DNA of 10,115 nt from Promethearchaeia archaeon (GTDB taxonomy: Archaea; Asgardarchaeota; Lokiarchaeia; Sigyniarchaeales; SOKP01). A model generated the notes under the pieces. That model had not been told where the DNA came from and ran no database searches. It saw nothing but the letters and a program-made list of their open reading frames with translations. The stretch lies in the NCBI GenBank assembly GCA_029856155.1, contig JAHQWL010000016.1, positions 1-10,115 on the forward strand. The letters run 5' to 3'. A program made the position numbers and the translations under genes. Below, one piece after another: positions 1,426 through 10,115 of this stretch (position 1 is its first letter; each line of letters begins with the position of its first letter).

Positions 1426-3426
1426 TCATCTATCATGATCTGCGGGACAATTGTCCAGACTCCAGTAAATTAATGGTACATCAGCTAGAAAACACCCTTT
1501 CAGTAATTTTGGCAACAAAAAAAGAATGGAATCGAATGTGGGCCCCCTTACTTTAATTCTATAAGGATATTGTCCCCCATCGCTTACCACATGAAAACAT
1601 AGCTCTCCTCTAGCACTTTCGACAAAAGATATTGCTTCTCCTTTTTGAATTTGATCCATGGGGCTAAATTCCACTTTAATAGGACCACCAGGTAACTTAT
1701 TCATACTTTCTTCTATTAAATTTAAGCTTTTTTCGATTTCTAGTCGTCTTACAAAAACTCTATGGTATACATCTCCATCGTTAAATATTGGCACATCGAA
1801 ATGAAGTTTGTCGTAGGCTGCATATGGAGTTGCTTTTCTCACATCAAATTTTACACCTGATGCCCTAATGTTGGGACCAGTAATATCAGATTCTATTGCA
1901 ATATCACGAGATATTTCCCCTAAATTGATAGCTCTTTTTCTGAAAACTAAATTATCCATAAAGAGGTCATCAAGAATTTTAAGTCTATTTTTTATATATG
2001 ATATTACATTCGGAGCATTTTTTTTAAATTCATCTGAGACATCACACCTCACCCCTCCTGGAATATTATATATTTGATAAATACGACCTCCACATAACGC
2101 CTCAAGGAGGAAAAGTATTTTTTCTCTATCCCCCCATACAAGCCTCGCTACTGTATCAAATCCACTACTATAAGCAACGAGCCCTAAATTAATTAAATGA
2201 CTTTGAATCCTTGATAATTCTGCCTGAATTACTCGTAGATACTTTGCTCTATCTGGAATTTCAAGTTCTAATAATTTCTCTAAGGCATTAACATATCCTA
2301 TTTCATATGATGCTCCATCTAACACACAAATACGTGATATAAGCATTATGTTTTGATACCACGTTCTATATTCAAAGAGTTTTTCAAGTCCTCTGTGGAG
2401 ATACCCCACAATACATACAGCATTGTATATTGTTTCTCCCTTAATATTTAATCTTAGCGAAAAATTACCTGATGCTGGATGTTGAGGGCCAAATGAAAGT
2501 ATCCTCTCATCGGTTCTAACTTTCTTTATGATTGGTTCTACTTTTAAATCATCTGTATTTCTATATTGAATCTTCTTCTTCGTTCTAACTTTTATTTCCC
2601 TCGGCTTATATCCACCTTCGATAGCTAGTATTGCATGGTAGGCAGCAACACCTATTGATTCTGGTCTAGTCGGACATCCAGCGATCCATATATCCACAGG
2701 GATATAATCATCAATCTTTTTTATGGTATTGTAACTATCCCAATATGTTCCTCCTGTCATAGGACAGTTTCCAAGAACCAACACAAATTTAGGTTGAGGC
2801 ATCGCTTTATATATACTAATTATCCTCTTTAATGTTTTATAAGTCACATAGCCCCCTATAAGAAGTACATCCGAATGTAACGGGCTTCCTTTTACAATCA
2901 TCCCAAATCTTTCCATATCAAATCCACTACCAACCCATGGTATTGCTTCTATGAAACAGCATCCAACAAAATAATTTGTTATCCATAAGCTCCTTGAACG
3001 CGCCCAACTTACAATACTTTTCCTCTTTGGTTTTTTAGGATGTTGTAACACTGGTTGTTGAGCCAACATTTCAGGTGTGAAAATTAAATCTTTTTTATTT
3101 GTCGAAATCATTATGGAAAAATTTGTTGTATCAAGAGCTTTTGTAGGACATAAATCGAGACATAGCCCGCAAAAACAACACTTTGAATAATCAATACTTG
3201 GATAATAGACAATTCTTCCATCTTTTTGTCGTTCTACCATATTAATCGCTTTATTAGGACAGATTCTAAAACAAATCCCACAAGATGTACATTTTTCTGG
3301 ATGAAAGATATGCCGTCCCCTAAATTTCTTTGAGATTGGTGACTCTGGAGGAAATTTGAATGTAATCGGTTTTTTTATAAATAGTTTTATCCCTGTTTTC
3401 AATATATTAAATGCTCTCTTAATCAT
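1426..3426 (-). CDS. Fused NuoI-NuoB-NuoD (MbxN-MbxJ-MbxL-like) peripheral arm of a complex I-like / MBS-like oxidoreductase
   Basis: aa 1-~125 form a NuoI-type 2x[4Fe-4S] domain (FRGRH, CTSCGICFRICP, CCFCGLCLDLCP). aa ~137-270 are NuoB-type (SWARSRSLW, GCCFIE, DMERFG, GNCPMTGG, VDIWIAGCPTRPE). aa ~305-666 are NuoD/large-subunit type (FGPQHP, GYLHRGLEK, RICVLD, ELSRIQSHL, GPNIRASG, VESARGE, PYRIKVRGP, SLDNCPADHDR). The frame is continuous and the start overlaps the nuoC stop (ATGA). Confidence 0.95.
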   Translation of the reverse strand: MIKRAFNILKTGIKLFIKKPITFKFPPESPISKKFRGRHIFHPEKCTSCGICFRICPNKAINMVERQKDGRIVYYPSIDYSKCCFCGLCLDLCPTKALDTTNFSIMISTNKKDLIFTPEMLAQQPVLQHPKKPKRKSIVSWARSRSLWITNYFVGCCFIEAIPWVGSGFDMERFGMIVKGSPLHSDVLLIGGYVTYKTLKRIISIYKAMPQPKFVLVLGNCPMTGGTYWDSYNTIKKIDDYIPVDIWIAGCPTRPESIGVAAYHAILAIEGGYKPREIKVRTKKKIQYRNTDDLKVEPIIKKVRTDERILSFGPQHPASGNFSLRLNIKGETIYNAVCIVGYLHRGLEKLFEYRTWYQNIMLISRICVLDGASYEIGYVNALEKLLELEIPDRAKYLRVIQAELSRIQSHLINLGLVAYSSGFDTVARLVWGDREKILFLLEALCGGRIYQIYNIPGGVRCDVSDEFKKNAPNVISYIKNRLKILDDLFMDNLVFRKRAINLGEISRDIAIESDITGPNIRASGVKFDVRKATPYAAYDKLHFDVPIFNDGDVYHRVFVRRLEIEKSLNLIEESMNKLPGGPIKVEFSPMDQIQKGEAISFVESARGELCFHVVSDGGQYPYRIKVRGPTFDSILFLLPKLLKGCFLADVPLIYWSLDNCPADHDR

Positions 3427-3917
3427 TTTCCATCATCTCTTTTAAACTCTGGCATCATTATGTTGAAATTCCTTTTGACATATTTCCTCCAATCAAAATC
3501 CTTTCTAAAGGGAGGTGGACCTATCCAATTTTCTAAGAACAATGGTTTTAACATTTTATTACCCTCAAAGATAATACCGAACATTTCCCATACCTCTCTT
3601 TCGTGCAACGCAGCATTCGGCCATAACTTGGATAAGCTTTCAATTTTTACATTCTTTCTTCGTGGAATACGTGTGGAAACTTTAATATAGATATTCTTGT
3701 TCATAATATGTAAGATAAAAAATATCTCAAATGAATCATCTTTTATCCAGTCCACCGCACTTAAAGTTAATAATCTTCGGAACCCATGGTCTTTGAGGTA
3801 TTTTGCGATATTGAGATAATCCTTTTTCCTAATTTTAAAAAAAAAGATATTTTTATCTTCCATATATTCTAATGAATCCTCTTTAAGTTGTTTTAAAAAA
3901 CTAATTCCTTCAGACAT
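3423..3917 (-). CDS. nuoC: Complex I 30 kDa subunit (NuoC / MbxK-like)
   Basis: Motifs TLSAVDW, LWPNAALHEREVWEMFGIIFEGN and PPFRKDF. A GAGGTG Shine-Dalgarno sequence lies upstream of the ATG. Confidence 0.93.
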   Translation of the reverse strand: MSEGISFLKQLKEDSLEYMEDKNIFFFKIRKKDYLNIAKYLKDHGFRRLLTLSAVDWIKDDSFEIFFILHIMNKNIYIKVSTRIPRRKNVKIESLSKLWPNAALHEREVWEMFGIIFEGNKMLKPLFLENWIGPPPFRKDFDWRKYVKRNFNIMMPEFKRDDGK

Positions 3918-3931
3918 ATAAAATTAACACC

Positions 3932-5440
3932 TCAACTATAAACAGATAAGAAAGAATCTACACATTTACAAATAATACCCCAAATGAATAACGACATAAT
4001 GGATACTAGTAGCATTATAATGAAAAGTGTTACCTCGGACGCTAATATCGTATTGTTTTTTTCTAAGGCATTATGAACTTCTTCTGAAATCTGATTTTCG
4101 GGAACAATGACTATGTTTTTTACTAAAACACCATAATAATAGCCTATAGAAATCACAGTGTTCACTACGATTATAATTGCGAGCATAATCCCCATCCAAC
4201 CAACTTGTTGTGATGATCCAATTGCAGCTTCTATCAGAAATAGCTTACTCCAAAACATAGCTAATGGTGGAAATGCTGCTAAGTAAAATGCGCTTAGGGC
4301 AAATATCATCCCTGCAACTTTCATTTTAGTTCCGATCCCCATCAACTTCTTTATTTCCCTTGTTTTCCCCTCTTTTATAAATGATCCCGCACAAATAAAC
4401 ATGGTCGCCTTTGATATTCCATGATTTAGAATATGAAATATTGTTGCTGCTAGTGCGAAAGGAGTACCTATCGCTATACCTACCATCATCAAACCTATAT
4501 TATAGACACTGGAATAGGCTAGCATTCTTTTTATATCTTCTTGTACTAGTGCAGTTAAATTTGGAATTGTTATAGTTAACGCAGATATTATAAGCAAAAA
4601 GATTACCATTATATTGTCAAAAGATAATAAAATCTCGTTATAAAAGATAGAGACTAATACTTTTATTAATGCGAACATTTCTATTTCAATAACAATTCCC
4701 GAAAGCATTGCACTTACTCCAGATGGAGCTGCTGAATGTGCGTCCGGCAACCATGTGTGGAGTGGAAAGATTGCTGCCTTCACACCAAATCCAAGTACGA
4801 ACATGATAAAAAGGAAATAATAAATGGTAAGGGGTTGATCATTTAATGCACTATTTAATTCTGTCAAATTAGTAGTGCCTGCGATGATGTAGACAAATGA
4901 TAGTGCAAACAACACTAAAGCAGCACCAATTGAGCCCATTATGATATACTTAAATGACGATTCAATAGATTCCTTATTTCTGTAAAAAGCAACTAGAATA
5001 TAAGCGGTAATTGCGAGAAATTCAGTAAACACAAAAAGGGTTATAAGATCACCCGAATATGCTACACCATTTAGTGCCGATATCATTAACAAAAGCAGAA
5101 AATAATATTCTGTTATTCGTTTTTCCTCTAAATAACCAATACTGTAAAGAGATATTATCGTCCCTAGAATGGAGGAAAAAAGTGATATTAATGCAGAAAG
5201 ACCATCAATTGCAATAATCGTTCCTCCAGTATGAAAATCGAGAAGAATTGGAGTAGTCAATGACTCAATAAGATTGCATAAGGAAAAGAACACAACTAGA
5301 AATAAACCACCTGTGCTGATAGCTCCTAATATTGCTTTATTTTCCCGACACTTTCCGGTTATTAAAACTATAATAGCTGTAATTAGTGGTATAATTATGG
5401 GAAATAGATACTTACTTATTAAAAATACTAATTCTGACAT
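3932..5440 (-). CDS. Antiporter-like proton-translocating subunit (MrpD/MbhH / NuoM-N family)
   Basis: 502 aa, highly hydrophobic. Motifs GDLITLFVFTE (TM5 Glu140), ESSFKY, GVKAAIFPLHTWLPDAH (TM7 Lys221), DIKRMLAYSS, FHILNHGISK and PPLAMFWSK (TM12 Lys399). It mixes M-like and N-like motifs, as MrpD/MbhH does. Confidence 0.92.
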   Translation of the reverse strand: MSELVFLISKYLFPIIIPLITAIIVLITGKCRENKAILGAISTGGLFLVVFFSLCNLIESLTTPILLDFHTGGTIIAIDGLSALISLFSSILGTIISLYSIGYLEEKRITEYYFLLLLMISALNGVAYSGDLITLFVFTEFLAITAYILVAFYRNKESIESSFKYIIMGSIGAALVLFALSFVYIIAGTTNLTELNSALNDQPLTIYYFLFIMFVLGFGVKAAIFPLHTWLPDAHSAAPSGVSAMLSGIVIEIEMFALIKVLVSIFYNEILLSFDNIMVIFLLIISALTITIPNLTALVQEDIKRMLAYSSVYNIGLMMVGIAIGTPFALAATIFHILNHGISKATMFICAGSFIKEGKTREIKKLMGIGTKMKVAGMIFALSAFYLAAFPPLAMFWSKLFLIEAAIGSSQQVGWMGIMLAIIIVVNTVISIGYYYGVLVKNIVIVPENQISEEVHNALEKNNTILASEVTLFIIMLLVSIMSLFIWGIICKCVDSFLSVYS

Positions 5441-5441
5441 A

Positions 5442-7526
5442 TTAACTCAGCTTCACCAACGCATATATAATAACAAGGGATAAAAATATACTGATAACAT
5501 AATAAAGCAAATTTAAATTTATCTTTCCAGTGTGGAATTTTCTTATATAATCACCACTCTTTCTAACACTATACGCAAGCCTGCAATAAAATTTATCAAT
5601 TGATTGATGAAAGTTTTTTGTGGCATTTCCTAATTTAGTAATCCTTTGGCCAATACCGTGATAAAGCTTATCAATTGATTGATGGAAGTTTTTTGTGGCA
5701 TTTCCTAATTTAAAAATCCCTTGGTAGAATGAATAATAAAGAGGATTAAAGATCACTCGCTTATTTAACAATTTATGTATATCCTTTATGAGATATTTTG
5801 ATGTTATAGCACGAGTAGAGATTTTTCTTGTGAAATAGAAAGGATAGGTTATTAATAAGCCCGTTATAAGTAATATAACAATTATATAAGTACCAATAGA
5901 CAACCATGTATTAGAAAGGAAATAAAATAGTTTATCAAATGAGATCTCCAGTGGAATACTTCTAGATATAAAATTAATAATAGTAGGGTAAAAAAAGATT
6001 AATCCAAAAGATAAAGTGGCTAAAATAATTAGAGGAACTGTCATTATGGAGGTAGGCTTGTGTATTTTTTCCATTGTCTCGATTTTTTTAATTTTCTCAC
6101 TCTCGGTCCCAAAAAATATAAGCCCAATCATTCTAAATATATATAGGTTAGTTAGGAGAAATGTCACGATAAATAGAATAGTAATCCATGCAGGGAGAAC
6201 AAATATTTCGTTAACTATAAGTTGAATGCTGAAATATCCCACCAATGGAGGGATTCCAACAATCGAAAATGCTCCTATCATCATTAAGATATAAGTCTTT
6301 TTCATATATTTTCTAAGAGAGCCCATTTCATAGACATTTTTGATACCTGTTGAGTGTATTATTAAGCCAGAACTTAAAAAAAGAAGCGATTTAAATATGC
6401 TATGTGCGAGGATAAAAAGAACACCTGCAACAAATGCTGAATAATTAAGATAGAGACCTGCAACACCGAATATAAAGAATATGTATCCCAACTGATTTGA
6501 AGTCGAAAAAGCAAGAATTTTCTCTAGATCCCTCGCTACTATTCCATAAACACCAGTCAATATAATAGTTATTAGTCCGCATATAATCGCAATTTCAAAT
6601 ATTAATGAGAGCTCAGAAGCAGCCGATAAAGAATATAAGTCATAATTTATTAAAAAGAGCCTGCCAAGTATATAAACACCTGCATTTATTGTAGTCGCGG
6701 AATGCATTAATGTGGAAGCAGTTATAGGCCCAACTGTCGACTCAGGAAGCCAATCATGAAATGGGAACTGAGCACTTATTGCGAGAGAACTTGAAATTAT
6801 CAATATTGAAAATAGAGGAAGGATTCCAGCATTTAAAAGTTTAGTTACCCAACAATTATCTTTACTAAGAGTCAAAAAATTTAAAGTAGGATGACCAAAA
6901 GAATTCATAGTAGCGAATTCGAGTAAAATAATTGCAACCTCCATAAAGCAACCAGCGATAAGTATAGTTATTAGTGCCTTAGTTCCACAGTGTCTATTAT
7001 ATTTTCCATCAGTATCAAAACTAGGAACCGGACTTGGGTTTGTTTTTTTATACCAGAATGAGATTAGTCCCCAATTACAAAGACTGACCATTAGAAATGC
7101 TAATAGCATTTCAATAAAATTATTCGATAATACCAAAAGAAACATAGAACCTAATGAGAAATTCATCCAGAACCAATATCGCCCTAAATCGATTTCTTCA
7201 CGCATGTATCCCAAGCTATAGACAAAAATCAAAATTGAAATAAATGCGATAATAATTATTATAAATACACTAAACTCATCAATTAATATACCAAATTCTA
7301 CATAAGCTACTCCAAAACCGTAAAATAAATTGAATGTGTCTTGGTGGGGGAGAGATAGTGGAAATGAGATCATATCATATAAAATTTTTAAAGATAAAAG
7401 AAAACACATAATTGAAATACCTAACGAAAAATATCCGGCGTATGACTTATTCCTCTTCGCAATCCCATATGCTATAAAGGAACCAATTAATGGAATTAAC
7501 CATATAGCCCAAACTTCTATATATAT
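5442..7526 (-). CDS. nuoL: NuoL/MrpA-family antiporter-like subunit with degenerate pumping residues and an extended lateral helix; start probably ATA at 7526 (the track calls ATG at 7409)
   Basis: Motifs FVYSLGYM, SAQFPFHDWLP, MHSAT, KILAFST..QLG, HSIFKSLLFL, GIPPLVGYFS and FHTG followed by a terminal TM helix. The frame stays open upstream of 7409 to 7529 and reads IYIEVWAIWLIPLIGSFIAYGIAKRNKSYAGYFSLGISI, a typical NuoL TM1 plus start of TM2. The family is secure; the exact start is less so. Confidence 0.88.
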   Translation of the reverse strand: MYIEVWAIWLIPLIGSFIAYGIAKRNKSYAGYFSLGISIMCFLLSLKILYDMISFPLSLPHQDTFNLFYGFGVAYVEFGILIDEFSVFIIIIIAFISILIFVYSLGYMREEIDLGRYWFWMNFSLGSMFLLVLSNNFIEMLLAFLMVSLCNWGLISFWYKKTNPSPVPSFDTDGKYNRHCGTKALITILIAGCFMEVAIILLEFATMNSFGHPTLNFLTLSKDNCWVTKLLNAGILPLFSILIISSSLAISAQFPFHDWLPESTVGPITASTLMHSATTINAGVYILGRLFLINYDLYSLSAASELSLIFEIAIICGLITIILTGVYGIVARDLEKILAFSTSNQLGYIFFIFGVAGLYLNYSAFVAGVLFILAHSIFKSLLFLSSGLIIHSTGIKNVYEMGSLRKYMKKTYILMMIGAFSIVGIPPLVGYFSIQLIVNEIFVLPAWITILFIVTFLLTNLYIFRMIGLIFFGTESEKIKKIETMEKIHKPTSIMTVPLIILATLSFGLIFFYPTIINFISRSIPLEISFDKLFYFLSNTWLSIGTYIIVILLITGLLITYPFYFTRKISTRAITSKYLIKDIHKLLNKRVIFNPLYYSFYQGIFKLGNATKNFHQSIDKLYHGIGQRITKLGNATKNFHQSIDKFYCRLAYSVRKSGDYIRKFHTGKINLNLLYYVISIFLSLVIIYALVKLS
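5586..5724. repeat. 75-bp-period tandem duplication inside nuoL (lateral helix)
   Basis: The 45-bp cores at 5593-5637 and 5668-5712 differ at one base, and the similarity extends into the flanks. Both encode KLGNATKNFHQSIDK. Confidence 0.97.
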
Positions 7527-7529
7527 CTC

Positions 7530-7856
7530 TTACCACCTAAGCTCACTAATTTTTTCAGCATCAAGTGTATTGAATTTTTCTTGCATCATATAAACAATAA
7601 TAAGAACAAACGCAGCAACAATTGCTGCTATTATTGTCGAGATCATAACGATTGTTACAACAAATGGATCTAAATTATTGCTTGCAAAATATACAGAAAA
7701 AAAGACTAGAAATGCATTTGCAGTGTTTATTAAAATCTCCACGCCTATTATTATCTTGATTACATTTTTACTAGTAGCAGCTATTACCAAGCTTATGAAA
7801 AATTCTGTCAATATTAAAAAAAATGTAAGTATTATTATATCAATCATTTTTATCAC
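7530..7856 (-). CDS. nuoK: NuoK/MrpC-family small membrane subunit
   Basis: Three hydrophobic segments, KNVIKIIIGVEILIN (conserved Glu), an MrpC-like LDP before TM3 and a C-terminal TLDAEKISELRW. The start is either GTG at 7856 (overlapping the upstream stop) or ATG at 7847, which follows AAGTGA-taaaa. Confidence 0.88.
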   Translation of the reverse strand: MIKMIDIIILTFFLILTEFFISLVIAATSKNVIKIIIGVEILINTANAFLVFFSVYFASNNLDPFVVTIVMISTIIAAIVAAFVLIIVYMMQEKFNTLDAEKISELRW

Positions 7857-8107
7857 TTCCCACCATTGGATCTCCTAATTTGTGTCGAAATACCTGCATA
7901 TACGCTGAGTAAAATAAAAGCTATTATGATCATCTCGAGCCCCCTATATTCCCAGATAAATTTTCCTATTAATGTATCAAATGCTTTATCATCCTCACCT
8001 TTTAAAATATCACTTGTGTTTTCTACATAATTGCTTTGAATATTCTCAAATTCAATGGCATAAGAAACAATAATTGTTACCATTAAGAACAATAACACAC
8101 ATGACAA
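7853..8107 (-). CDS. NuoJ C-terminal half (J2 / MbhE-like) small membrane subunit
   Basis: Two hydrophobic segments, the motif IGKFIWEYRGLEMIIIAFILL, and its position between J1 and K. The track start is TTG; the frame is open upstream to ATA codons at 8125/8128 behind GGAGG. Confidence 0.75.
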   Translation of the reverse strand: MSCVLLFLMVTIIVSYAIEFENIQSNYVENTSDILKGEDDKAFDTLIGKFIWEYRGLEMIIIAFILLSVYAGISTQIRRSNGGK

Positions 8108-8111
8108 TAAT

Positions 8112-8366
8112 TTACTCTTCTTTATTATCTTCCCCTCCTATTAAACATACTATATAAAAAAATAGAGTCGCCATCGAAGCAGAGTATAGCGTTATCTGAA
8201 ATATGCCCAAGAGAGTATAACCCAAAAAAATATAAATTATTCCTATTAAGATATTGAATACTGTAAAAAAAATAGCAGCGTACATTAATTTCTCTACAAA
8301 ATAGATTATTAATGTGATTAATATTACTAAAATAAATAATGACAGAGGAATAATAAGAATATTCAT
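8112..8366 (-). CDS. NuoJ N-terminal half (J1 / MbhD-like)
   Basis: Three TM segments. LGYTLLGIFQITLYSASMATLFFYIV matches the NuoJ TM3 pattern Q..VYAGA..VLF. The SD GGAGTGA lies 6 nt before the ATG. Confidence 0.82.
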   Translation of the reverse strand: MNILIIPLSLFILVILITLIIYFVEKLMYAAIFFTVFNILIGIIYIFLGYTLLGIFQITLYSASMATLFFYIVCLIGGEDNKEE

Positions 8367-8372
8367 ATTGAA

Positions 8373-9347
8373 TCACTCCAAACCAAATATAATGATTGTA
8401 ATTAAATTAAACATTGCCAATGGAATAATTACTTTCCAGAAATAGTTAATTACTTGATCAATGCGATATCTTGCAGTAATGCTCCTTATCATTGTTATTA
8501 TAAAGACAATTAATGATGTCTTGAGAAAGAACATTATAAAATTTAAAGTCTGATTAAGAAATAATAACTCAGGATAGTTAAAATAAGGGAATGTTGGACC
8601 ACCTAGGAAAAGGATGGCTCCAAGAGATGCCACAAAATACATATTAAGATCCGAAGAAAGTCTGAATAAGGCTAATGTTCTCCCACTGATTTCTGTTGAC
8701 CATCCTGCTACGATTTCTGACTCAGCATTTGGAGAATCAAATGGGACTTTTTCTATTTTTGCTATGCTACTAAATATATATGCAATAAAACTTAAAGGCA
8801 TGAATGATATAAGGGGAATACCCGATGATTGAAATAACAAACTTTCTTTTATAGTAAAAGATTTGGATATGGCAATAATAGTTGCTATTGATATTCCGAA
8901 AGGAATTTCGAAGGAAATTATCATCTCTGCCTTTCTTGCTGCACCTTCATTTGAATATAGGCAAGCAACAGAATAACCAGTTATTATAATTAAAAGATCT
9001 ATAAACACACCGATCCCGAATAATAAAACTAAATCACCACTAAACGAAAGTGGTGCATTAAAATCATAAATTGGAATAAAAAGTAGTATAAAAAACATTA
9101 GTGCGACTGATGATATTGCAGAGAATGTTATCAAAAAAGTATTACTTACTTTTGGAAATATACTCTCCTTGTTTAATAATTTAATAAAGTCCGCCAAGGG
9201 TTGCATTATTCCTTTGAAACCGGTCATTTGAGGCCCTATTCTATTTTGAAAACGTGCATATACCTTCCTATCAAACCACTCATAAAAAAGGGAGAATATA
9301 AACGATAGAAGAACCCATATCAATATCATAGCGATTTTAATCATCAT
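8373..9347 (-). CDS. nuoH: Complex I subunit 1 family (NuoH / MbxM-like)
   Basis: Motifs DRKVYARFQNRIGP, QPLADFIKLLNKE, ISFEIP, PFDSPNAESEIVAGW and RYRIDQ. Confidence 0.95.
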   Translation of the reverse strand: MMIKIAMILIWVLLSFIFSLFYEWFDRKVYARFQNRIGPQMTGFKGIMQPLADFIKLLNKESIFPKVSNTFLITFSAISSVALMFFILLFIPIYDFNAPLSFSGDLVLLFGIGVFIDLLIIITGYSVACLYSNEGAARKAEMIISFEIPFGISIATIIAISKSFTIKESLLFQSSGIPLISFMPLSFIAYIFSSIAKIEKVPFDSPNAESEIVAGWSTEISGRTLALFRLSSDLNMYFVASLGAILFLGGPTFPYFNYPELLFLNQTLNFIMFFLKTSLIVFIITMIRSITARYRIDQVINYFWKVIIPLAMFNLITIIIFGLE

Positions 9348-9648
9348 TCACTCTCTCTTTTTCCTTGGGAATAAAAAATAAAGAGAATGTGATCAAAATC
9401 AAGAAACTTAAAGTTATAATATTTAGTGAAAGAGAGGTAATTGCAACAAGAACTACTGCGGCATCAAATGCGATAAAAAGACTGGCATAATATATCCATG
9501 GGACTTGATATTTCACCTTATGTTCTATTAATCTTTCTCCACAATGATAGGTGTCACTATATCTTCGTTTTTTGCTTCCTAATAAATAAATTATAAATGC
9601 AACAAGGTATACGATAAGTAGTGATACTAGAAGTTCAATTATGATCAT
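9337..9648 (-). CDS. nuoA: NuoA-family membrane subunit
   Basis: Three TM segments, loop motif YHCGE (canonical FECG) and YYASLFIAFD. It is the first gene of the operon and overlaps the nuoH start. Confidence 0.85.
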   Translation of the reverse strand: MIIIELLVSLLIVYLVAFIIYLLGSKKRRYSDTYHCGERLIEHKVKYQVPWIYYASLFIAFDAAVVLVAITSLSLNIITLSFLILITFSLFFIPKEKERVNDD

Positions 9649-9953: not shown

Positions 9954-10036
9954 CTATAACGATGATTTCACGAAGAATATTTCTAGAGAAAATTTTTATT
10001 TTATTGATAATGTTGACAAGGCATGGAATATCCATT

Positions 10037-10114
10037 TTACGCTACTTTTTCTTCCCCTTTTGAGTCTTTTACTATTGTATGGATAAGAAGAGGCTCCGAA
10101 CAAAAAGTGCAACG
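10037..10114 (-). CDS. 3' end of a gene running in from outside the window, with a CxxC motif (possible zinc ribbon)
   Basis: Reads ...RCTFCSEPLLIHTIVKDSKGEEKVA*. Only 25 codons are visible. Confidence 0.35.
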   Translation of the reverse strand, partial: RCTFCSEPLLIHTIVKDSKGEEKVA

Positions 10115-10115
10115 T

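Follow-up and report, generated by a model that had tools for sequence, protein, structure and literature searches.

Can the terminal antiporter-like subunit of a complex I-type enzyme lose its own proton path and still be kept? How redox chemistry is coupled to ion pumping in complex I and its kin is still disputed, including the role of NuoL/ND5 and its lateral helix and the bypass of blocked modules, and laboratory mutants have given mixed answers on what the distal subunits contribute. The question is raised here by contig JAHQWL010000016.1 of a Promethearchaeia archaeon (GenBank assembly GCA_029856155.1), analysed over its whole length of 10,115 bases and referred to here as ‘the window’ (one complete contig; genome 4.1 Mb, 97%-complete). 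It bears a tight minus-strand operon in the order nuoA, nuoH, split nuoJ, nuoK, a NuoL-type gene (its product is referred to here as L), a NuoN/MrpD-type gene (N), nuoC and a NuoI-NuoB-NuoD fusion (I-B-D). We found that L is built like a complete NuoL and that charged residues of its canonical proton relay have been replaced. Two alignments in agreement, one by HMMER to solved NdhF/ND5/NuoL chains and one by MAFFT of 120 homologs, place the following residues at the relay positions (TM, transmembrane helix; residue numbers follow the open reading frame (ORF) defined by the first ATG, and full-length numbering is the ORF number + 39):

7092-7094, minus strand: Leu106 at the TM5 Glu (E. coli NuoL E144 position; HMMER, MAFFT).
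6951-6953, minus strand: Gly153 at the TM6 Asp (E. coli D178 position; alignments).
6777-6779, minus strand: Ile211 at the TM7 Lys (alignments).
6702-6704, minus strand: the TM8 His, retained in the window (alignment).
6390-6416, minus strand: the TM11 motif, with the first His replaced by Phe332 (6414-6416) and the second His (6402-6404) and the Lys (6390-6392) retained.
6222-6227, minus strand: Ile395-Gln396 at the TM12 Lys-Asp (Ile395 is 6225-6227; HMMER, MAFFT).

The canonical axis of TM5 Glu, TM7 Lys, TM8 His, TM11 His-His-Lys and TM12 Lys-Asp reads in the window Leu, Ile, His, Phe-His-Lys and Ile-Gln, and 5 of the 8-9 canonical ionisable relay positions are replaced, the substitutes being hydrophobic (Leu, Ile, Phe and Ile), Gly or neutral Gln. 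A preliminary description of this DNA had aligned the motifs AFLMVSLCN, ILIAG, AISAQ, LFILAHSIFK and YFSIQ by eye and had taken the charged residues of TM5, TM6 and TM7, the first TM11 His and the TM12 Lys to be lost; a script check found all of these motifs and their codon coordinates to be correct, and HMMER and MAFFT agree on the replacements, that at TM6 being of the Asp. The TM6 Arg, which had been counted among the losses, reads Gly or Ser in the intact sister group described below as well, and it therefore was not lost in the clade to which the window belongs. Among 59 homologs outside that clade, the TM5 Glu is found in 55/59, the TM6 Asp in 57/59, the TM7 Lys in 59/59, the first TM11 His in 56/59 and the TM12 Lys in 57/59, and because these columns are nearly invariant the combination of losses is, on sequence grounds, far from chance drift.

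The same kind of relay-depleted L was found in seven lineages with 68-94% identity (the window and loci L023, L003, L024/L010, L007, L008 and L006; L is unreadable in one more member, L020/L039, whose contig stops 62 bases short of N). A maximum-likelihood tree joins the seven as one group (SH-aLRT 100) on a stem of 0.77 changes per site vs. 0.30 for the intact sister stem, and this group is nested within the intact-relay NuoL of group 4 [NiFe] hydrogenase operons (all four Ni-Fe cysteines present); the relay loss is therefore derived. Leu at TM5, Gly at TM6, Phe, Tyr or Cys at the first TM11 His and Ile-Gln at TM12 are common to 7/7, and environmental variants with at least 90% identity to the window, present in ten assemblies from several archives, carry matching residues wherever the sites are covered. 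The TM7 Ile is confined to the three youngest members (the window, L023 and L003) and to those of these variants that cover the site, while the four older members keep Lys; the TM8 His has become Phe, Asn or Ile in three other members, and the TM11 Lys has become Asn or Thr in three members. These last three columns are invariant in 58-59 of the 59 outside homologs, and the TM7 Lys, TM8 His and TM11 Lys were lost separately, after the common losses at TM5, TM6, the first TM11 His and TM12. Compared with average columns, 3/4 of the relay positions still present vary (binomial p=0.2, four positions only). Relay residues have also been lost independently in NuoL homologs outside the clade, namely P0088 (L077 10001-12172, in an A-H-J-K-L-M operon), in which the TM5 Glu is Ala and the TM12 Lys-Asp is Asn-Asn, and P0114, with Gln, Gln, Gln and Thr-Asn at four relay positions.

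The gene itself and the parts of its product that matter for the argument lie as follows:

5442-7526, minus strand: nuoL-type gene, frame conserved from ATA 7524-7526 (694 codons; Pfam PF00662 and PF00361, AlphaFold).
7407-7409, minus strand: first ATG of the nuoL-type gene (655 codons; ATG-defined ORF 5442-7409, by ORF reading).
5535-5747, minus strand: lateral (transverse) helix, ~70 residues (DSSP of the model, helices 594-632 and 637-664).
5448-5522, minus strand: TM16 anchor beyond the lateral helix (model helix 669-693).

Both Pfam domains score above cut-off (PF00662, 38.9 bits; PF00361, 111.4 bits), and the NCBIfam subunit-L equivalogs score below it (TIGR01974, 291.8 vs. 407.5 bits; NF005141, 295.5 vs. 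556 bits). That the ORF is full length, as first described, holds if translation starts at the ATA at 7524-7526; it does not hold for the ATG-defined ORF, which is without TM1, the 39 codons upstream of the ATG encoding this helix and being conserved in homologs that start at ATG or GTG. The codon at this start position is ATG or GTG in L006, L007, L010 and L008 and ATA in the window and L003, and in the window no ATG, GTG or TTG was found from the nuoK stop (TAA) to the ATG at 7407-7409 (region 7407-7540). In L023 an ATG stands two codons downstream of the ATA position, and in L003 a frame difference reaches an upstream ATG within nuoK. An AlphaFold model of L from a 64-sequence alignment (predicted local distance difference test 88.9, predicted template modelling score 0.85) contains the usual NuoL helices, with TM7 and TM12 broken, the ~70-residue lateral helix and TM16, and its best Foldseek matches are NdhF, NuoL and ND5 (TM-score 0.7-0.8 over the full length); as modelled, L has an intact and confidently predicted NuoL fold.

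Selection on L was assessed from pairwise ratios of nonsynonymous to synonymous change (dN/dS; Nei-Gojobori, 670-694 codons; figures for the rest of the operon are ratios of proportions). In all comparisons except the closest one, L gives a dN/dS of 0.25-0.38, a value significantly below 1 (p 7e-8 to 2e-26) vs. 0.24-0.29 for the rest of the operon (gene-wise values 0.12-0.36), so that L exceeds the other genes only 1.2-1.6x. In an intact sister pair, too, L is the fastest gene (0.20 vs. 0.07 for N and 0.06 for H), and a modest L excess is thus not peculiar to the relay-depleted clade; a special relaxation of L relative to its neighbours was considered and dropped as non-diagnostic, the excess in the intact pair being similar or larger. 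Because dN/dS is below 1, the frames are open and the NuoL fold is confident, L is not a pseudogene in the clade as a whole, and pseudogene formation is retained only as a minor alternative where the youngest branch is concerned.

One of the four operon-bearing genomes, G053, has an open 369-codon L in the same operon, in which TM1-6 are fused in frame to TM15, the lateral helix (three 25-residue units) and TM16; TM7-14 are deleted and every central relay position of these helices is gone with them. This mini-L has Leu at the TM5 Glu column and Ile at the TM6 Asp column (the latter by eye from the alignment), and its retained parts, compared with the full-length members, give a dN/dS of 0.31-0.37. 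Its model shows TM1-5 with confidence and the remainder as helical with low confidence, and a Pfam search gave no family match for it. The I-B-D gene starts at the contig end in G053, so the operon continues as far as it is readable. The lateral helix in the window carries a 75-bp tandem duplication (5585-5741; Tandem Repeats Finder period 75, 1.9-2.1 copies, 90% matches), and of its 25-residue units L006 has one, the window has two, as do L024 and L008, and the G053 mini-L (L043 7300-7700) has three; lateral-helix length is here independent of how many antiporter-like subunits there are, unlike the description in PMC7684303. A deletion of the core that retains the N-terminal and lateral helices fits a scaffold or clamp better than it fits decay.

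We therefore think it probable that L has lost its own conduction path and is kept to cap N and to supply the lateral-helix clamp, while N and the proximal part of the enzyme do the pumping. The proton relay of a complete NuoL/ND5-type subunit would most likely have been dismantled, with no protons passing through the canonical central axis. L would cap the outer face of N, the one working antiporter-like subunit, and with its long lateral helix and TM16 anchor would strap the membrane arm together; ion translocation would rest on N and the H/A/J/K part only, and fewer ions would consequently be moved per turnover than with two live antiporter subunits. The Yarrowia subcomplex, the Paracoccus transverse helix and MbhI of the MBH hydrogenase, compared below, are precedents that support a scaffold role. 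The preliminary description had proposed a plugged subunit, inactivated under selection to leave a scaffold and not decaying, and had named conservation in close homologs, dN/dS and structure modelling as ways to check this. All three speak for it: the replacements are common to the seven-lineage clade (the TM7 Ile to three members), L is constrained outside the closest pair, and the fold is intact; the interpretation as a whole is partly supported. A dismantled relay agrees with a plug, but a simple plug does not account for four conserved new Glu residues on outer helix positions; a scaffold agrees with the G053 deletion, but of selected inactivation we see only loss on the stem branch, ordinary purifying selection and further erosion.

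Several observations weigh against a subunit that no longer conducts. His375, which is invariant, and Lys379 are still present in L of the window, and four Glu absent from canonical NuoL (139, 196, 311 and 440; full-length numbering) are conserved in the clade. The canonical ATG of nuoL is missing in the sub-lineage of the window, and in the closest comparison (window vs. L023) L has a dN/dS of 0.72, which is not significantly less than 1, vs. 0.33 for the other genes (Fisher p 0.03). Finally, point mutants in the ND4 relay of Paracoccus complex I showed slower catalysis without lowered stoichiometry (PMC9802314), and a blocked distal module therefore need not be harmless.

The first two of these points underlie the alternative that survives best, for which N and two of the new Glu residues have to be placed:

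3932-5440, minus strand: second antiporter-like subunit N (N/MrpD/MbhH type; PF00361, closest to MbhH and MbsH).
7110-7112, minus strand: Glu139 (NNFIEM), third residue of the TM5 helix, six before the lost Glu (Glu in all clade members, Gln in 15/16 sisters).
6939-6941, minus strand: Glu196 on TM6, one helical turn (four residues) after the lost Asp (Glu in 6/7 members, Gln in one; Leu/Ile in sisters).

We reasoned that L may be re-routed and not plugged, with ions transferred by way of Glu139, Glu196, Glu311, Glu440 and His375, or, in variants of the same idea, with these residues providing an outward exit or counter-charge for the N TM12 Lys where N meets L, or else a binding site for a different cation. 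The four Glu are clade-specific; Glu139 is six residues away from the lost TM5 Glu and Glu196 four from the lost TM6 Asp, in each case toward what is predicted to be the outer side, and both are retained in the G053 mini-L, which keeps exactly the N-facing TM1-6. N offers a matching change. It retains TM5 Glu140, TM7 Lys221, TM11 His/His/Lys and TM12 Lys399, so that the three key residues are in place as the preliminary description had stated; its TM8 Lys, however, is Glu252 in the clade, with Glu254 beside it (window 4679-4687, residues 252-254), where sister hydrogenase operons have Lys-Ala-Gly. The N subunit of L020 has Gly-x-Glu at the equivalent residues. On the other side, Glu311 is the start of TM9 and Glu440 the end of TM12b, so that in the model three of the four (Glu139, Glu311 and Glu440) lie near helix ends and not mid-membrane, only Glu196 being deeper; Glu311 and Glu440 fall within the part deleted in G053; and acidic residues near the outer surface are commonplace. 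All four are predicted to lie on the outer side, a placement based on known NuoL topology and Lys/Arg-rich loops. The NNFIEM Glu had been raised as a possible equivalent of the TM5 Glu; the alignment excludes this, since the residue is six positions upstream in a column that is Gln in 15/16 sisters, which also keep the canonical Glu. Weighing these points, we regard re-routing as unlikely.

Still less probable, in our judgement, is that decay is under way, such that L, or else the entire operon, is being lost and the apparent constraint merely reflects the lag before stop codons arise. The operon is patchy (4/161 genomes of the class and 2/54 in the genus, by genome search), homology to relatives ends at its borders or at most ~300 bases from them, as in a cassette, and the operon-wide dN/dS (0.2-0.3) is above that of the sister group (0.06-0.2); the missing ATG, the high ratio for the closest pair and the large deletion in one lineage point the same way. 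However, seven lineages keep open frames of 669-694 codons and the deleted one keeps a frame of 369 codons, at ~30% G+C, a composition in which chance stops are common, and dN/dS falls far below 1 when deeper pairs are compared (p<1e-7). Along the branch leading to the window itself, most of the 20 amino-acid changes are conservative (e.g. Ala/Val, Ile/Val, Phe/Leu), and the environmental variants with the same substitutions recur across ten assemblies from several archives. That the charged residues have only been shifted by misalignment, L being an ordinary pump, is highly improbable: identity to solved NuoL is just 20-24%, but two independent alignment methods concur, the flanking motifs SAQFP.H.WLP, AHSIFK and GxPP..G anchor each position, and the sisters, at 39-46% identity, align gap-free at the relay sites with canonical residues.

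Returning to L as a non-conducting cap and clamp, we tentatively entertain, as a possibility somewhat less doubtful than re-routing alone, that the clade records a stepwise conversion of the distal antiporter subunit to an inert clamp (first the relay ends, then scattered remaining positions, then the mini-L), with relocated Glu on the N-facing helices letting N release its ion at the N-L interface. If so, this would be a branch of the complex I superfamily that works without any passage through the terminal subunit, and it would contradict, by an example from nature, models that have every pumped proton exit via ND5/NuoL. In the literature searched, we came across no natural relay-dead NuoL reported within a complete operon. 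Intact L (sister hydrogenases), relay-depleted L (seven lineages) and core-deleted L (one) form a natural graded series under selection, which bears on whether the proximal pump can act alone, on the need for the lateral helix and on the exit of the neighbouring subunit's ion.

The remaining genes of the operon are these:

9337-9648, minus strand: nuoA (Pfam).
8373-9347, minus strand: nuoH (Pfam).
8112-8366 and 7853-8107, minus strand: split nuoJ (Pfam).
7530-7856, minus strand: nuoK (Pfam).
3423-3917, minus strand: nuoC (Pfam/NCBIfam).
1426-3426, minus strand: NuoI-NuoB-NuoD fusion, D part MbsL-like (Pfam/NCBIfam).

No PF00361 genes other than L and N occur in the operon or elsewhere in the 97%-complete genome. 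NuoH retains its conserved Glu motifs; NuoK and NuoA lack their second acids, as do their counterparts in the sister hydrogenases. Because homology ends near the operon borders and a 94%-identical copy is present in another genus, the operon may be a moving cassette, or the contig mis-binned, as these patterns suggest. The flanks (1-1128 and 9976-10115) have ~23% G+C, do not align to any relative and hold short ORFs only, which resemble gene ends (e.g. a weak Amino_oxidase C-terminus, 939-1097). In L006 a tyrosine-recombinase-like gene follows the operon. At L003 7242-7244 the I-B-D gene has Ile (IIKRVF) at the start-Met position of the window and L006, and the gene caller took a later start (658 residues).

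What the arm is joined to sets this enzyme apart from complex I. The D part of the I-B-D fusion has 6u8y_L (MbsL) as its best solved match (E 5e-89), keeps two residual cysteines (RIC... and ...DNCP) aligned to those named C85 and C385 in MbsL (PMC7684303), and is without a Ni-Fe site. Compared with 2fug_4, the quinone-site residues of NuoD (Nqo4 H38 and Y87) are replaced, the His column being a gap or Gly and the Tyr column Val; the B domain reads GCCFIE, with tandem Cys as in complex I, and NuoEFG are absent from the operon, the part of the genome searched for them. The enzyme thereby has an MBS-like redox head and is not an NADH:quinone complex I, and since its arm is kin to hydrogenase operons while its head is MbsL-like, we describe the operon as a chimera of a hydrogenase-type complex-I-like arm and an MBS-like head. 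Records from Asgard archaea and Bathyarchaeia contain the I-B-D fusion widely; NuoC and I-B-D form a two-gene unit without adjoining membrane genes in 9/9 other Asgard genomes (L068-L076) and 2 public contigs (L021 and L022, the latter apparently the same contig as L068, one of the nine). None among these genomes and contigs has an I-B-D fusion operon with a live L, and NuoH is encoded elsewhere in the five of the nine genomes that were checked. In L022 the NuoC/I-B-D pair adjoins formate dehydrogenase-like and FrhB-like genes. The window operon is the exception in joining the pair to a membrane arm. A membrane-bound MBS-like enzyme is also added to Loki-type Asgard archaea, whose cultured Lokiarchaeales representative is drawn without a complex-I-type membrane enzyme in one published scheme.

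Among known systems, L shares with NuoL, ND5, Nqo12 and NdhF (3RKO, 7P61, 4HE8, 6HUM) the PF00662 and PF00361 domains, the predicted 16-helix architecture and the place after nuoK, at 20-24% identity to solved NuoL; it differs from NuoL of complex I at the TM5 Glu, TM6 Asp, TM7 Lys, first TM11 His and TM12 Lys-Asp, and its operon has two antiporter-like subunits where complex I has three (L, M and N). Its nearest kin, at 39-46% identity, are the group 4 [NiFe] hydrogenases of Heimdall/Njord-type Asgard archaea, whose short-armed complex-I-like enzymes have been published (Appler et al., bioRxiv 10.1101/2024.07.04.601786). The short arm, A-H-J-J-K-L-N with only two antiporter-like subunits, is the same in these enzymes, but their L keeps the whole relay, and their heads consist of separate B, C, D and I genes with four Ni-Fe cysteines, unlike the NuoC plus I-B-D fusion of the window.

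The Pyrococcus furiosus MBS (6U8Y) and MBH (6CFW) are closest in other parts, the D domain to MbsL and N to MbhH/MbsH. The Mrp-derived Na+ module of MBS (MbsA, B, C, D, E and G) and its MbsH/MbsH' pair, both members of which are described as live proton pumps (PMC7684303), are absent from the window operon, which has NuoA/H/J/K/L-type genes instead; MBS reduces polysulfide at a three-Cys proximal cluster; the B domain of the window, as given above, has tandem Cys as in complex I. MBH has its lateral helix on a small subunit, MbhI, for which two transmembrane helices are described (PMC7684303), an arrangement that the G053 mini-L resembles. A Yarrowia subcomplex without ND4/ND5 kept half of its pumping (PMC3160329), and the transverse helix was found to be purely structural in Paracoccus (PMC9802314); as we propose for the window, the proximal part works and pumps without a live distal module in these cases, and the transverse helix is structural. 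They are, however, engineered or assembly-defective, whereas the state of L in the window is natural, inherited and under selection.

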